A stretch of 64,000 nt of DNA. Origin: Callorhinchus milii (lineage: Eukaryota). The DNA lies in contig NW_024704742.1 in NCBI RefSeq assembly GCF_018977255.1, positions 11,782,001-11,846,000 on the forward strand, read 5' to 3'. Below the pieces are notes generated by a model. It did no database searches. It saw only the letters and a list, made by a program, of their open reading frames with translations, and had not been told where the DNA came from. The translations under genes were made by a program, and so were the position numbers. Below are positions 14,010 to 61,898 of this stretch, in pieces (the first letter of the stretch is position 1; each line of letters opens with the position of its first letter).

Positions 14010-14322
14010 AATTTACATTGGTATAGTGCCTTTTACATGAGGAGGATGGCTCAGATTGCTTCACACTGCTGTCTGGGCAACCGTGCTGCTGGGTGGGAGC
14101 TAATGGTGGTGTGGAGGGAGGGAACGAGTTGGTCGGATTCTGCGATGGAGTTCCAGAGAGGAGGGGGTGTTATGGCTGAAAACCCACCCGCCTGCGAATG
14201 ATGGGTCAGAGAGGGCGAGGAATATGAAACCAGACTGTGTTCACTGAGTGTAGTATGGTTGAAGAGATAGTGTTTCGAAGAGGTAGAGTGGGGTGAGGCT
14301 TGCAGAAGGATTTGAAGATGAG
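14010..14322 (-). mobile_element. Old L2, 3' part; host of the H2B+SINE block
   Basis: Decayed L2 C-terminus (LWNSI) and tail. Joins colinearly with the L2 piece at 15185-15380. Confidence 0.65.
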
Positions 14323-14626
14323 AATAATAATAATAATCCTTGCATTTGTTATAGCGCTTTTCACGTCTTCTCGACATCTCAAAGCGCTTCACAGAATATA
14401 CTGTAAAGTGAATTGATTGTATATTTGTGGGTAAAATGCGGCAGCCAATTGCGCACAGCAGTGTCCCACAAACAGTCTTGGATTGAAAATGACCAATTTA
14501 TTATTGTTTTGTTTTTGGAGGGATTATTATTAAGCGTGTGGAGTAAGGAAACTTGCCCAAGGTTGAAATTGAAACCAGGGTCTCACTTGCAAGGCGAGTG
14601 CTCTAACCACTGGGCTACAGGACTCC
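14323..14626 (-). mobile_element. tRNA-derived SINE, short-body form, full length
   Basis: Head GGAGTCCTGTAGCCCAG starts at 14626; (ATT)n tail at about 14323-14337. Confidence 0.95.
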
Positions 14627-14670
14627 ATGGGATATTATCAGTGCACACATAAGTTTAAGGCGCTTTTGTT

Positions 14671-14712
14671 ACAGCTCTGTCGGAGAAGTGGTGTGTGGTT
14701 CTGAAAAGAGCC
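14671..14712 (-). promoter_or_regulatory. Histone 3' processing signals: stem-loop (14697-14712) and histone downstream element (14671-14680)
   Basis: Minus strand reads AAAGGCTCTTTTCAGAACCACAC (canonical GGCTCTTTTCAGAGCC, one mismatch), then ACAGAGCTGT (canonical AAAGAGCTGT). Confidence 0.9.
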
Positions 14713-14742
14713 TTTGTGTGTAGATGAAGTGAATGTGAGCCT

Positions 14743-15145
14743 TCACTTGGAGCTGGTGTACTTGGTGACGGCCTTGGTGCCCTCGGACATGGCCTGCTTG
14801 GCCAGCTCCCTGGGCAGCAGCAGGCGCACGGTGGTCTGGATCTTCCTGGAGGTGATGGTCGAGCGCTTGTTGTACTGAGCCAGGCAGGAAGCCTTGGACG
14901 CGAAGCGCTCGAAGATGTCATTCACAGGAGTTCATGATGCTCATGGCCTTGGAGGAGATGCTGGTGTCCGGGTGAACCTGCTTCATCACCTTGTACATGT
15001 AGAAGGAGTAACTCTCCTTCATCGACCTCCTGCGCTTCTTGCTCGCAGTCTGCGGTTTGTGAATCGCTTTCTTGCTACCTTTTTGGGGAGCTCCTTTGCC
15101 CTCGGATTTAGCTCCTTTGGCCTCGGATTTGGCGTCACCTAACAT
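14743..15145 (-). pseudogene. H2B: Replication-dependent histone H2B pseudogene
   Basis: [37 protein letters not shown] / [51 protein letters not shown] 2-bp deletion at about 14926 shifts the frame. Several invariant residues are substituted. Confidence 0.95.
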
Positions 15146-15184
15146 TCTCTCTTGACTACAAACAACACAGTGTCCAATGAGGAC

Positions 15185-15380
15185 ATGAGGAATGAGGATC
15201 TTGAACACAATCCCCTGGGGGATGGGGAGCTGAGCAGTGGAGCTGAGTAAGAATGGGGGTGATGGGCTCACGTTGCCAGTGGGAGAGAAGACATGGACTA
15301 CAGAGATCTGGATAGTCTGCGGCCTGCGTAGGGATGAGCTAGGGGAGTATCATTTACCACAGTCAAGCCTTACAATAGTG
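15185..15380 (-). mobile_element. Old L2, upstream part; host of the H2B+SINE block
   Basis: Encodes [13 protein letters not shown], matching L2 [14 protein letters not shown]. Confidence 0.7.
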
Positions 15381-25630: not shown

Positions 25631-25667
25631 ATAAATGTTGCTGGTATTGGTGACGATTTTCTTAAAA

Positions 25668-26140
25668 AATAATAATAATCCTTGCATTTGATATAGCGCT
25701 TTTCACGTCTTCTAGACGTCTCAAAGCGCTTCACACAACACACTGTAAAGTGAATTGACTGTATATTTGTGGGCGAAACACAGCAGCCAATTGCGCACAG
25801 CAGTGTCCCACAAACAGTCGTAGATTGAAAATGACCAATTTATTATTGTTTTGTTTTTGGAGGGATTATTATTAGTTGTGTGGAGTAAGGAAACTTGCCG
25901 AAGGTTTTGCCCTGCCTGGAATTGAACTCAGGTCTCGCGCTTGCAAAGCGAGTGCTCTAACCACTGAGCTACAGGACTCCACGATATAGCGCCTCATCAC
26001 GTCTTCGAGACATCTCAAAGCGCTTCACAGAATATACTGTAAAGTGAATTGACCATATATTTGGTGGGCAAAACGCAGCAACCAATTGCTCACAACAGTG
26101 TCCCACAACCAGCCGTGGATTGAGTGACCAAATTATTATT
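25668..26140 (-). mobile_element. Two tandem SINEs: full copy 25668-25980 and 3' part 25983-26140
   Basis: A second SINE tail begins immediately after the head of the first. Confidence 0.9.
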
Positions 26141-31675: not shown

Positions 31676-31988
31676 ATAATAATAATAATCCTTGCATTTG
31701 ATATAGCGTTTTTCACGTCTTCTCGATGTCTCAAAGCACTTCACAGAATAGACTGTAAAGTAAATTGACCGCATATTTGTGGGCGAAACGCGGCAGCCAA
31801 TTGCGCACAGCAGTGTTCCACAAACAGTCATGGATTGAAATGACCAATTTATTATCGTTTTGTTTTGGAGGGATTATTATTAGGCGTGTGGAGTAAGGAA
31901 ACTTGCCCAAGGTTTCGCCCTGCATGGAATTGAATCCAGGTGCCTCGCTTGCAAGGCGAGTGCTCTAAACACTGAGCTACAGGACTCC
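31676..31988 (-). mobile_element. SINE, short-body form, full length
   Basis: Head ends at GGACTCC (31988). Confidence 0.95.
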
Positions 31989-32001
31989 ACTATTGCCAAG
32001 T

Positions 32002-32355
32002 GGAGTCCTGTAGCTTAGAGTTTAGAGCACTCACTTCGCAAGCGAGAGGACCTGGGTTCGATTCCTGGCAGGGCGAAACATTGGGCAAGTTTCCTCACTG
32101 TTTACCTAGCAGTAAGTAGGAACACAACTGTTAGTCGATTGGCAGATTGCTCTTCGGGGGGGTAATAATCCCTTAGAAATAAATAAATTGGTCACTCAAT
32201 CCACGACTGTGGGTCACTGGTGTCCTCAATTGGCTGCTATGTTTCGCCCACAAAATGTACAGTTAATTCACTTTACAGTATATTCTGTGAAATGCTTTCA
32301 GATGTCTCGAAGAGGTGATAAGGTGCTTTATCAAATGCAACAATTATTATTATTG
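32002..32355 (+). mobile_element. SINE, long-body form, full length
   Basis: Starts GGAGTCCTGTAGC at 32002; ATT tail. Confidence 0.9.
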
Positions 32356-41539: not shown

Positions 41540-44500
41540 TGACTGCTAGGGCTCGCATCAGGGACCACCATGGTCCAGTTGGGTTGGCTGCCCCAGCCCC
41601 AGCCTATGGGCTAATGCCATCCACCTGACCGCTCACTCCAGGTCCCCGCATGCGCATTATGGCTGCTGCTCTGACCCGAGCCCCCTCACCCACTCACCCC
41701 CTCCCCCCAAACCCTCCCCCCTCTGCATCTCTCCCGCTCTGTCCTCCTCTTTCTCCGTCCCTCTCGCCTTCTATCCCCACTTGACCCTCCCACAACCTCC
41801 CTCTGCTCCAGCCTGGGAATCCTCCGCCGGGCTCACCGTGGCACTCGGCGTTGGCTGTCCAGCAGCAGCCACACTGACTGCCCCATTCCCCACCACACTC
41901 GCCAGCCACCCTGGACACAGACCCAGGGAGCCAAACTCTCCTCCCTCATCCTCATTCCCCCCACCCCTGCCTCACAACCTGGACCCCCCTCCCTCCCCAC
42001 ACATCCTTCTGTCAACCGCTCCCTCCACATCGGAATACAGAACGTCCGCTCCCTCTGTAACAAGGTCCTGGTCATCAACGATCTCATCCTTGATGAGAGA
42101 GTTTACATCATGGCCTTAACGGAAACCTGGCTCACCCCAGGTGACAACTTCCCCCTCACGGAGGCCACACCACCCGGCTACATCTCCCACCACATCCCTC
42201 GCCCCAACATCCGTGGTGGTGGTGTGGCCCTTATCGCAAGGACACCACTTGCCCAATCCCCCTACTCCTCTGGCTCTTTCCCCTCTTTTGAGCACCTCAC
42301 CCTCTCCCACCCCTCCTTTCATTCAAAATCCTCCTCCTCTACCGGCCCCTTAAAACCTCTCTCACCTTTATCTCTTATATTTCGACACTTCTTACATCTC
42401 TCTTCCTCTGCTCTGATCGCCTCATCAACCTGGGCAACTTCAACCTGCACTTCACCCCTCCTGCTCCATTTCCTCGGACTTCTCTTCCCTGCTATCCTCA
42501 CTCAACCTCTCCCTCCACATCAACTCCCCCACTCACAGTCACGGCCACCCACTCGATTTGGTGATCACCCGGGGCCTCAGTGTCTCAGATGTCACCATTA
42601 CCGACAAGGCCGTCTCCGATCACCACTTCATCTCCTTCACCATCTCCACCCCCCTCCCCACCTCCACCAGAAACACCACCATCTTCTACTGCCCCTGGAA
42701 GAAGTTACCCCCACAATCCGTAACTGCTGCCTTAGCTCTGAACTACTCTCCCTCTGGCATTCAACCCTCACTGAACGCTCTTCTGCTCTCATCCTCCTCC
42801 ACAACACCCTCTCCTCCACACTCGACACTCTTGCTCCCATCACCTCCCATACTGTCACTTACTCTCACTCCTCCTCCGGTTCACCACCCACCTCCGCTCA
42901 CTGAAGAGCCAGGTGCGGGCCGCTGAATGCACCTGCCTCAAATCTGGCCTCACGGTCCGACAAATCTGGCTGGACCTCCTCAAAATCTACTGCTCCACTC
43001 TAGCCTCAGCCAAGTCGTCCTTCTACTCCAGGATAATCCTGGAGGCGAAGAATAACCCCAGGCTTTTGTTCTCTACCACATCCCGACTCCTCCGTCCCCC
43101 CCACCACCCCGCGCAGGTCATCTCCTTCAACCTTTACTGCGGGGACATGCTGGATTTCCTTGAATCCAAAATCAAGGGAATCCGCTCCGCGATCACTCCC
43201 CCTCCAACTTCCACCCAACCCCCACCCCTTCCCTCCCACACTCCAACTCCTACACATCCTCCCCTACACACCGTCGAACTCATTTCCCCACCCTCTGTCA
43301 CCAACCTCATCCTGTCCCTGAAACCCACCACCTGCTCCCTTGACCCCATCCCCACTCCACTCCTTATCTCTCAGCTCCAACTCCTTGCCCCACTTCTCAC
43401 AGACATCATCAACCTGTCCCTCTCCTCTGGCTCAGTTCCCATTCCCCTAAAAACTGCCATCATCACTCCCACTTTGAAAAANCCCTCCCTTGATGCGTCG
43501 CAGCTATCAGGCTACCGGCCCATCTCCAACCTCCCCTTCCTGTCCAAGGTCCTTGAAAGAGTTGTGGCCACCCAGCTGCGCTCTTTCCTCTCTACCCATG
43601 CATTATTCGAACCGCTTCAGTCGGGTTTCCGTGCTGCCCATAGTATGGAAACCGCCCTGGTCAAGGTCACTAATGACATCTTGACCATCTGCGACCAGGG
43701 CTCCCTCTGCCTCCTCATCCCCCTCGACCTATCGGCCACATTCGATACGGTCAACCACTGTATCCTCCTCCACCGCTTGTCCTCCCACCTCAACCTTCAA
43801 GGCCCTGTCCTTGAGTGGTTTAGGTCGTACCTCTCCCACCGTCTTCATTTTGTTTCCACAAATGGCTTTTCTTTCAGCCCCCGCCCTCTCTCGTGCGGTG
43901 TCCCTCAGGGCTCTGTCCTCGGTCCCCTCCTCTTCACCCTCTATATGCTCCCCCTGTGGTGACATCATCCGCAGACATGGGGTTAACTTCCACATGTATG
44001 TGGATGACACGCAACTCTACCTTTCCTCCTCTACCCTCAACTCCACGACCACCGATGTCCTGACAGTCTGCCTGTCCGACATCGAGTCCTGGACGAGAGA
44101 CAACTTTCTTCTGCTCAATGTGCGCAAAACTGAGGCCCTCCTGATTGGCTCACGTCAGCGCCTCCGCACCTCAGGCGCTGACACCATCAGCATCCAAGGC
44201 TGCACTCTCCACCTCTCAAAGCAGTCAGGAACCTCGGGGTTCTGTTCGACCCTGAGCTGTCCTTTCTTCCTTATATCCGCGCCACAACTGGCACTGCCTT
44301 CCATCACCTCCGAAACATCGCCGGACTATGGCACTACCTCACCCCTCACGCTGCTGAAACTCTGGTCCATGCCTTTATCACCTCAAGGCTGGACTATGGG
44401 AACTCTTTCTTCGCCGGCCTTCCTGGCACCTCCCTCCTGGCTCCGGTCTGCTCCACTTACCCCGCCCCAACCGCTCTACCATCGGTGGCCGGGCCTTCAG

Positions 44501-44770
44501 CCTCTCAGCCCCTAGGCTCTGGAATTCCATCCCCCAGTGCCTTCGCTGCCTCCTCCCTTTCCTCCTTCAAGGCCGGTCTCAAGACCTTTCTCTTTGACCG
44601 TGCCTTCAGCTCCCCTCTCGACTCTCTATCCCCTCCTCGCTCCCTTCCTTCCCTCCCCTCACCCTGACCATTTGCCCCCTGCTCGGGTGCCGACCCAATT
44701 GTCCAGCACCTTGGTACGTCCTCCTGACGTGAAAGGTGCTCTATAAATGAAATCTTGTTGTTGTTGTTGT
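41540..44770 (+). mobile_element. L2 LINE, about 3.2 kb, defective (endonuclease and RT)
   Basis: [60 protein letters not shown]. Has an internal deletion near 44435, frameshifts and a (TTG)n tail. Confidence 0.95.
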
Positions 44771-58257: not shown

Positions 58258-61200
58258 CAACAACAACAAGATTGCATCTATAGAGCGCCTTTCACGTCGG
58301 GAGGACATCCCAAGGCGCTGGACAGTTGGGTCAGGACCCGAGCAAGGGGGAAATGGTCAGGGTGAGGGGAGGGAAGGGAGGGAGCGAGGAGGGGCTAGGA
58401 AGTCGAGAGGGGAGCTGAAGGCACGGTCGAAGAGAAAGGTCTTGAGACCGGCCTTGAAGGAGGAAAGGGAGGAGGCAAGGCGAAGGCACTGGGGTATGGA
58501 GTTCCACAGCCTAGGGGGTGATAGGCTGAAGGCCCGGCCACCGATGGTGGGGTGGGGGATGTGGAGCAGACCGGAGCCAGAGGAACGGAGGGTACGGGCA
58601 GGTAGGTAGGGGGATAGTAGGTCGGAGAGGTAGGAGGGAGCAAGGCTGTGAATGGCCTTGTAGGTGACGATGAGGATCTTGAAATCGACCCTCTGGGGGA
58701 TGGGGAGCCAGTGGTGGCGAGCGAGGGTGGGAGTGATGTGGTCGCGGTGTCTGGTGTGGGACAGTACACGAGCTGCAGAGTTCTGAATGATCTGCAGCTT
58801 GTGGAGGGAGGTGGCGGGAAGGCCGGCAAGGAGAGAGTTCCCATAGTCCAGCCTTGAGGTGATAAAGGCGTGAACCAGGGTTTCAGCAGCGTGAGGGGTG
58901 AGGTAGTGCCGTAGTCTGGCGATGTTCTGGAGGTGGTGGAAGGTGGTGCCAGTTGTGGCGCGGATATGAGGGAGAAAGGACAGCTCAGGGTCGAACAGAA
59001 CGCCGAGGTTCCTGACTGGCTTTGAGAGGTGGAGAGTGCAGCCTTGGATGCTGATGCTGTCAGCGCCTGAGGTGCGGAGGCGCTGACGTGAGCCAATCAG
59101 GAGGGCCTCAGTTTTATGCACGTTGAGCTGAAGAAAGTTGTCTCTCGTCCAGGACTCGATGTCGGACAGGCAGGCTGTCAGGACATCGGTGGTCGTGGAG
59201 TTTAGAGTAGAGGAGGAAAGGTAGAGTTGGGTGTCATCCGCATACATGTGAAAGTTAACCCCATGTCTGCGGGTGATGTCACCAAGGGGGAGCATATAGA
59301 GGGTGAAGAGGAGGGGACCGAGGACAGAGCCCTGAGGGACACCGCACGAGACAGTGCGGGGGCCGGAGGAATAACCATTCGTGGAAACAAAGTGAAGACG
59401 GTGGGAGAGATACGACCTAAACCACTCAAGGACAGGGCCTTGAAGGTTTAGGTGGGAGGACAAGCGGTGGAGGAGGATAGCATGGTCGACCGTATCGAAT
59501 GCTGCCGATAGGACGAGGAGGCAGAGGGAGCCCTGGTCACAGATGGTCAGGATGTCATTGGTGACCTTGACCAGGGCAGTTTCTGTGCTATGGGCAGCAC
59601 GGAAACCTGACTGAAGGGGTTCGAATAATGAATGGGTGGAGAGGAAAGAGCGCAGCTGGGAGGCGACAACTTGTTCCAGGACCTTGGACAGGAAGGGGAG
59701 GTTGGAGATGGGCCGGTAGCTTGATAGCTGCGACGCATCAAGGGAGGGTTTTTTCAAGGTGGGAGTGATGGTGGCAGTTTTTAAGGGAATGGGAACAGAG
59801 CCAGAGGAGAGGGACAGGTTGACGATGTCTGTGATATGTGGGGCAAGGAGGTGGAGCTGGGAGATAAGGAGTGGGGATGGGGTCAAGGGAGCAGGTGGTG
59901 GGTTTCAGGGATAGGATGAGTTTGGTGACAGAGGGTGGGGAAACGGGTACGAAAGGGTGTAGGGGAGGATGGGTAGGAGTCGGAGTGTGGGAGGGAGGGG
60001 GTGGGGGGGTGGGTGGATGTTGGAGGGGAAGTGACCGCGGAGCGAATTCCCTTGATTTTGGATTCAAGGAAATCCAGATTCTCCTCGCAGTGAAGGTTGG
60101 AGGAGATGACCTGCGCGGTGTGGCGTGGGGGATGGAGGAGTCGGGATGTGGTAGAAAACAGTAGCCTGGGGTTGTTCTTCGCCTCCAGGATTATCCTGGA
60201 ATAGAAGGACAATTTGGCTGAGGCTAGAGTGGAGCAGTAGATTTTGAGGAGGTCCAGCCAGATTTGTCGGTGGACCGTTAGGCCAGATTTGACGCAGGTG
60301 CGTTCAGCGGCCCGCACCTGGCTCTTCAGTGAGCGGAGGTGGGTGGTGAACCAGGGGGAGGAGTGAGAGTAGGAGACAGTACGGGAGGTGATGGGGGCAA
60401 GAGTATCAAGTGTGGAGGAGAGGGTGTTGTGGAGGAGGGTAAGAGCAGAAGAGGGATCAGTGAGGGTTGAAGGCCAGAGGGAGAGGAGTTCAGAGGACTC
60501 CAAGGCAGCGGTTAGGGATTGTGGGGGTAACTTCTTCCAAGGGCAGTGGAAGATGGTGGTGGGTCTGGTGGAGGTGGGGAGGATGGTGGAGGTGGTGAAG
60601 GAGATGAAGTGGTGGTCAGAGACGGCCTTGTCGGTGATAGTGACATCTGAGACACTGAGGCCCCGGGTGATCACCAAGTCGAGTGGGTGGCCGTGACTGA
60701 ATGGGGGAGTTGATGTGGAGGGAGAGGTTGAGCGAGGAGAGCAGGGAAGAGAAGTCTGAGGAGATGGAGCAGGAGGGGGTGAAGTGTAGGCTAAAGTCGC
60801 CCAGGATGATGAGGCGATCAGAGCAGAGGCAGAGAGATGTAAGAAGTGTCGAAATATCGGAGATACGGTGGGAGAGGTTTTAGGGGGCCGGTAGAGGAGG
60901 AGGATTTTGAGTGAGAGGAAGGAGGGCTGGGAAAGGGTGAGGTGCTCAAAAGAGGGGAAAGAGCCAGAGGAGTAGGGGAATAGGGCAAGTGGTGTTTTTG
61001 AGATAAGGGCAACACCACCGCCACAGCGGTTGGAGCGAGGGATGTGGTGGGAGGTGTAGCCGGGTGGTGTGGCCTCCGTGAGGGGGAAGGTGTCGCCTGG
61101 GGTGAGCCAGGTTTCCGTTAAGGCCATGATGTCAACTCTCTCATCAAGGATGCGATCGTTGATGACCAGGGCCTTGTTACAGTGGGAGCGGATGTTTTGT

Positions 61201-61898
61201 AGTTCGATTTGGAGGGAAAGGTTGACAGACGGGTGTGTGGGAGGGGAGGGGGGTCCAGTTTGTGAGGCGGGTGGGGGGAATGGGGATGAGAGGAGAAAGG
61301 TTGGCTCCCCGGGTCTGTGTCCGGGGTGGCTGGCGAGTGTGGTGGGGAATGGGGCAGTCGGTGTGGCTGTTGCTGGACAGCCTATGCCAAGTGCCACAGT
61401 GAGCCCGGCGGAGGATTCCCAGGCTGGAACAGAGGGAGGTTGTGAGAGGGTCAAGTGGGGATAGAAGATGAGAGGGATGGAGTGAGAGGAGGACAGAGCG
61501 AGAGAGATGCAGAGGGGGGAGGGTTTGAGGGTAGGGAGGAGGGAGGGAGGGGGTGAGGGGGCTCGGGTCATAGCGGCAGCCATAGTGCGCACGCGGGGAC
61601 CGGGAGCGAGCGGTCAAGTGGATGGAAACATTATCCCATAGGCCTGGGTAGCCAACCCAACAGGACCATGGTGGGCCCTGATGTGAGCCCTGGGGCGGGG
61701 GGGGCGCAGAGGTTTTTTTTTTGCATGCGCACACTTCTGAAAACTACAACTATGACGTCAGCGGTTCCCCCGCTCCGCCCCCATCCGTTCCCTCCTCAGC
61801 CCCGCAGCCCCCCTGGCTAGACTCCCTGCCGCCGCGACCTTAAATACCTGGGTAGGTAGGCCCAGGCTCCTCCCCGCGCTGTCCTGCCGCCGCTCCCC
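58258..61898 (-). mobile_element. Near full-length L2-clade LINE (GC-rich 5' UTR, single endonuclease+RT ORF broken by frameshifts, stem-loop and (TTG)n tail)
   Basis: ORF 59883-61592 (LQNIRS, MALTETW, LYRPP, GHPLDLVIT, SDH) and ORF 58357-59886 ([33 protein letters not shown]). The 5' end coincides with that of the copy at 54642. Confidence 0.97.

Follow-up and report, generated by a model that had tools for sequence, protein, structure and literature searches.

A histone H2B copy and a full-length SINE lie side by side inside one old L2 LINE, and we conclude that the two were very probably inserted together in a single event by L2-type machinery. In the window (the whole 64-kb stretch of DNA analyzed here), the minus strand carries one old L2 split by an 860-bp block that reads, in order, leader, frameshifted H2B, histone stem-loop, HDE-like element, spacer, full-length tRNA-derived SINE and (ATT)5. 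Re-reading of the minus strand upheld the order and coordinates that a preliminary description had given for these parts. Its proposal that they entered as one unit, by way of the SINE tail and L2-type machinery, is also well supported, by a lossless split of the L2, a short target duplication, a hairpin shared by SINE and L2 ends, and equal ages of the two parts. The block is a real, well-preserved chimeric retrocopy. The surrounding window is rich in repeats (self-comparison masks 42% of it), and a Pfam scan covering 150 of the 326 non-repeat frames (window 473-29459) detected neither a host gene nor a further histone; two matches were weak and below the cut-off.

The insertion site

The upstream arm of the host L2, comprising the 3′ end of its ORF2 (15186..15343, minus strand), is 72-76% identical to five window L2 copies; it aligns to all five L2 paralogues tested, and the alignment always ends at 15186. 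This arm runs ...GATCCTC and then ATTCCTCAT (15193-15185, minus strand). On the other side of the block the L2 restarts with ATTCTCAT (14325-14318, minus strand) followed by CTTCAAATCC, and the downstream arm (14013..14317, minus strand), delimited by alignment to L2 paralogues, continues to the element's own 3′ tail. The restart falls at the matching point in three of the five paralogues, and in the other two the alignment begins only further down. The split ORF2 frame encodes FKILI in the left arm and ILIFKS in the right arm, where the paralogues have FKILILTYKA, so no L2 sequence was lost. At least 4 nt (ATTC) and at most 8 nt (ATTCTCAT, the left copy having one more C) were duplicated. In the left copy, ATTCCTCAT (15185..15193, minus strand), the sequence beyond ATTC may be target-derived filler; in the right copy, ATTCTCAT (14318..14325, minus strand), the first ATT is shared with the SINE tail repeat.

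The preliminary description had placed the whole block inside approximate direct repeats. A 4-8-nt duplication does surround the block, but the direct repeat carries modest weight when taken alone: 17 of 596 random flanks equalled its score, which an ATCCTC repeat of the L2's own also inflates. The split L2 is stronger evidence of insertion than the direct repeat. A duplication of 4-8 nt fits an L2 enzyme, since target duplications of 1-9 bp are reported for platypus U6-L2/Mon-1 chimeras (PMC4476161) and one of 5 bp for ZfL2-1 (PMC4245944); that of L1 is given as about 15 bp (PMC4245944). A classical L1 processed pseudogene was considered and rejected, as the block has no A run and its duplication is 4-8 nt as opposed to ~15 bp.

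At the 5′ junction, TCCTCAT occurs three times in tandem (window 15177-15199, minus strand). The third copy may belong to the H2B leader, as its first bases, or may be filler templated by the target.

The SINE and its tail

The window holds 34 SINE copies with a tail end, six of which are full length, including that of the block (14323..14627, minus strand). The block's copy has an 11-nt deletion and two substitutions in the B-box region; the clustering of these changes (p about 0.03) was tested post hoc and is left out of the evidence. Its head matches the Rfam tRNA model at 22.5 bits, under the gathering score, and ARAGORN called the heads of five sister SINEs tRNA-Ala. We rejected these calls (8377, 10951, 23981, 25977 and 32004) as tRNA genes, as they are SINE heads.

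The tail of the block's SINE (14323..14395, minus strand) consists of a hairpin and (ATT)5. Over the last 70 nt of the SINE, the sequence can be aligned with five young L2 3′ ends and with the end of the host L2, and the SINE tail and L2 ends adopt an identical two-stem fold (z -3.05 for the block copy). The SINE combines a tRNA-like head with a tail and hairpin shared with a LINE, two features of an L2-mobilized tRNA-derived SINE. The local LINE that shares this tail, which by its likeness to the clade we take to be an L2, carries reverse transcriptase and endonuclease domains. The local young L2s end in (GTT)n and the SINE in (ATT)n, so they are candidate rather than established partners.

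Several other arrangements of these repeats were seen in the window. There are two SINE subfamilies with the same tail stem and a different 5-nt loop (e.g., 14375 and 23720): GAGAA or TAGAA in the group of the block's SINE, and CTCCC, which is also the loop of the young L2s, in the younger group. The two loop types may mark two partner LINEs. At window 25665-26140 (minus strand), a 5′-truncated older SINE lacking its last bases adjoins the head of a full-length SINE, and the tail of the first does not resume after the second; this is either a SINE dimer or an insertion with loss of target sequence. At window 31676-32099, an inverted SINE head of 100 nt faces, ~10 nt away, the head of a full-length SINE. 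Window 58270-61743 holds, on the minus strand, a young L2 that is nearly full length and has long frames for endonuclease and reverse transcriptase, and an L2 resembling it lies on the plus strand near 41550-44750.

The H2B copy and its flanks

The H2B sequence (14743..15145 from ATG to stop, minus strand) is dead. Two nucleotides are missing near 14926, the N-terminal tail contains a 21-bp tandem duplication (15089..15130, minus strand; period 21, 2.0 copies, 95% matches), and the core has nine replacements among the 73 codons examined. The preliminary description had listed an H2B open reading frame, which the 2-nt loss and the tandem duplication show not to be intact. Neither the leader, the coding part nor the spacer has a second copy in the 64-kb window. 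A pattern made from the spacer matched nothing among metagenome contigs, but a SINE pattern matched nothing there either, so this collection is uninformative.

Downstream of the stop, the histone 3′ stem-loop (14697..14712, minus strand; one mismatch in the stem) is followed by AGAGCTGT (14671..14678, minus strand), which resembles a histone downstream element (HDE) and would lie past the normal cleavage site. Together they give a match to the Rfam Histone3 model (14717-14671; 23.8 bits, E 0.0014) that ends with the HDE-like element and is below the gathering score of 34; with the stem-loop taken alone, the histone hairpin is absent from the best fold (z -0.54). Then comes a unique spacer of 43 nt (14628..14670, minus strand), probably the 3′ flank of the parent H2B gene. 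Ten poly(A)-signal hexamers were sought between 14735 and 14628 and none was present, nor was there a run of six A's. The H2B-derived part retains the HDE and reaches 64 nt beyond the expected cleavage site, which we presume to be at the usual position for histone mRNA, and has neither poly(A) nor its signal.

The 5′ end of the block lies 39 nt upstream of the H2B ATG, and these 39 nt (15146..15184, minus strand) form a leader that is probably the H2B 5′ UTR. TATAWAW has no match within the leader or immediately upstream, in agreement, as with poly(A), with the preliminary description. A start this close above the ATG, with no TATA box, points to an RNA origin of the 5′ part. Replication-dependent histone genes are not known to have introns, so intron loss cannot prove an RNA origin at this locus. 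This leaves room for capture at the DNA level, in which the end of the SINE cDNA would have invaded an H2B gene, copied ~560 bp of chromosomal DNA and rejoined the target. Such a capture would account for sequence beyond the cleavage site with no unusual RNA, and about half of zebrafish ZfL2-2 copies bear a few extra 5′ nucleotides; we nevertheless regard it as quite improbable, as DNA copying gives no reason for a captured piece that ends near the histone transcript start with the promoter absent, or for its sense orientation.

A near-length protein search returned, among the 120 of 602 matches listed, two from elephant shark (Callorhinchus milii): V9LIG4 and a model of the locus itself. V9LIG4 is the nearest intact protein of the species among the matches listed, but it was rejected as the parent H2B for its divergent tail. 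Because its N-terminal tail differs so widely, the parent is likely to be another H2B paralogue; none of 22 candidates in a search for a longer H2B bore the same N-terminal tail.

One UniRef entry from Callorhinchus milii, A0A4W3GPN5 ("Anoctamin 9a"), is built from the H2B pseudogene (window 14743-15090, minus strand). It was matched by the N-terminal frame of the histone gene, and its residues equal the locus across both frames, except that its start looks spliced and that it has a gap where the frameshift lies; on this ground we take the window to come from elephant shark. Anoctamin matches were absent from the 150 of 326 non-repeat frames scanned, and the entry looks like a mis-named gene model.

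One event or two

The SINE and the H2B copy have decayed equally, as a comparison suggested in the preliminary description now shows. The SINE differs from the majority of nine other copies at 7 of 269 non-CpG sites (2.6%) and 6 of 22 CpG sites (27%), and H2B differs from V9LIG4 at 3 of 146 non-CpG (2.1%) and 6 of 20 CpG (30%) replacement sites (Fisher p 1.0 for non-CpG and CpG sites alike); these age estimates are rough, as the H2B reference is a different paralogue and one H2B change falls at a variable position, and the confidence ranges of the non-CpG values are wide (1.1-5.3% for the SINE and 0.4-5.9% for H2B). Among the ten copies of its group, the block's SINE has the lowest non-CpG divergence. 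Because the H2B copy is at least as old as the SINE, the SINE would have stood beside the parent gene only briefly, if at all.

We regard it as very unlikely that two separate insertions occurred, the H2B copy arriving first and the SINE landing at its 3′ junction, or the reverse. SINE density is high, and a weak repeat (ATCCCAT as compared with ATTCTCAT) brackets the SINE alone; the preliminary description had raised this motif, as ATGGGAT, as a possible target duplication of the SINE's own. A SINE-only duplication was rejected, the repeat being at chance level (178 of 596 random flanks). Exact 4-5-nt duplications occur at four of nine other SINE copies, which does not exceed the 95th percentile of the null. 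Two insertions would also require an exact junction match, and an unrelated sense SINE tail falls within 5 nt of a given junction with a chance of ~0.3% (34 tail ends in 64 kb). The ages of the two parts agree, and an H2B copy on its own would have had no poly(A) or any other handle for retrotransposition.

How the two parts were joined

Read-through from an H2B gene into a neighboring SINE, with the product copied by an L2 enzyme as one RNA, is the explanation toward which we cautiously lean. We infer that a replication-dependent H2B gene acquired a recent sense SINE 43 nt downstream of its HDE, and that a Pol II transcript evading U7-dependent cleavage would have continued through the SINE and thereby borne the hairpin and ATT repeat required by the L2 enzyme. 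The enzyme would then have nicked the old L2 and primed on the ATT overlap, and target-primed reverse transcription would have run through the SINE, spacer, H2B and leader to the 5′ end of the transcript, leaving a 4-8-nt duplication and a promoterless copy that would have decayed since. This route would also need the enzyme to start from a tail located inside a longer RNA, as has reportedly been seen in reporter work with the eel L2.

Read-through is favored because it predicts an H2B part that runs on through the HDE to 64 nt beyond the mature end, with no poly(A), as seen here. We also count in its favor that human L1 5′ transductions mostly involve near-full-length elements (bioRxiv 10.1101/2025.02.02.635956). 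It is weakened because the SINE, the least diverged of the ten copies of its group at non-CpG sites, is no older than H2B, because only 6 of the 34 tailed copies are full length, the complete 5′ end suiting end-to-end jumping as well, and because the terminal repeats of the SINE and the young L2s differ.

Such a jump, or an RNA ligation, is an alternative that we put forward tentatively; the preliminary description, which proposed read-through, had left it out of account. The L2 enzyme would have copied a Pol III SINE RNA to its 5′ end and then an unprocessed or 3′-extended H2B RNA, and the parent H2B gene would have no adjoining SINE. Two RNAs in the same orientation lie within one duplication, as a template switch would leave them, the 5′ end of the SINE is complete, and the SINE is no older than H2B. 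The junction, however, is found neither at the end of the mature acceptor RNA nor inside it; it lies 64 nt beyond the presumed cleavage site, where only rare unprocessed or extended RNA would reach, and it carries no poly(A) remnant. Template switching is the explanation given for chimeras of U6 with the L2-mobilized Mon-1 and AnolisSINE2, with duplications of 1-9 bp reported in platypus (PMC4476161), which supports a jump, but the platypus chimeras have a short LINE part and a usually 5′-truncated U6 (PMC4476161), whereas both parts look complete here.

If read-through is correct and the parent bears a SINE, retrocopies in genomes rich in L2/CR1 are predicted to terminate in SINE tails within a short shared duplication. 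We think it quite unlikely that the H2B gene with a SINE past its HDE is, in addition, a Pol II-driven master locus whose read-through transcripts were repeatedly copied by the stringent L2 enzyme. Were it so, one would expect several H2B+SINE copies scattered through the genome and joined at the same point, an emerging histone-headed retroposon; SINE tails would then be a route by which full-length gene retrocopies arise generally where L2/CR1 dominate the genome.

Comparison with known systems

Both candidate mechanisms are already known in other settings, and poly(A) independence is not new. The preliminary description had presented a poly(A)-independent route to retrocopies as novel, which overstates the case given the tailless histone retrocopies (PMC5322556) and 5′ transductions (PMC12593883, PMC4494074) in print. 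In a literature search at the level of titles and abstract openings, mostly outside subscription journals, we found no histone transcript carried by an L2-partner SINE, and the main text of the elephant shark genome paper, in the parts available, mentions neither SINEs nor histones (PMC3964593). The example is a single copy, dead and functionless. Few gene retrocopies are expected from LINEs whose enzyme accepts no tail but their own (PMC4476161, PMC5470649), and the block is a natural case in which a whole protein-coding transcript appears to have been copied through a SINE tail by a stringent-LINE system. Retrocopies with SINE tails would form a class overlooked by poly(A)-based screens.

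In humans, 51 tailless histone retropseudogenes have been reported (Noll et al. 2015; PMC5322556). As in the block, a histone mRNA was copied with no poly(A); those copies were made by L1, are 5′-truncated and without a SINE, and were reportedly not found in platypus or chicken (PMC5322556). The block was rejected as a tailless retropseudogene, since a 305-nt SINE with a tail of its own stands between the RNA end and the duplication. The SINE itself resembles, by description, the elephant shark SINEX-1_CM/SINE2-1_CM, a tRNA-derived SINE of the same species with a LINE-shared tail that is paired with CR1-2_CM (PMC3747384).

The block also works like a 5′ transduction, with host sequence and element in one target duplication and in sense orientation, and is a candidate member of that class. 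Transduction from upstream promoters has been described for SVA (PMC12593883), L1 5′ transductions include 17 mRNA or lncRNA cases (bioRxiv 10.1101/2025.02.02.635956), and 5′ transduction has been suggested for the 5′ extensions of SINEU-2 (PMC4494074). These share with the block an upstream host sequence, from an upstream promoter, that lies in sense within one duplication with a near-full-length element. The SVA and L1 cases differ in their relaxed, poly(A)-reading L1 enzyme and frequent splicing, whereas the block lacks poly(A) and its tail is of L2 type; they also require a source locus, whereas the block is known from its insertion site alone.

The closest likeness in arrangement is to the U6-Mon-1 and U6-AnolisSINE2 chimeras (Doucet et al. 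2015; PMC4476161), in which a cellular RNA lies upstream of an L2-mobilized SINE within short duplications (1-9 bp in platypus). In contrast to these chimeras, the 5′ part of the block appears to be a whole Pol II protein-coding transcript with its 3′ flank rather than a snRNA, and both parts look complete, so that read-through is possible.
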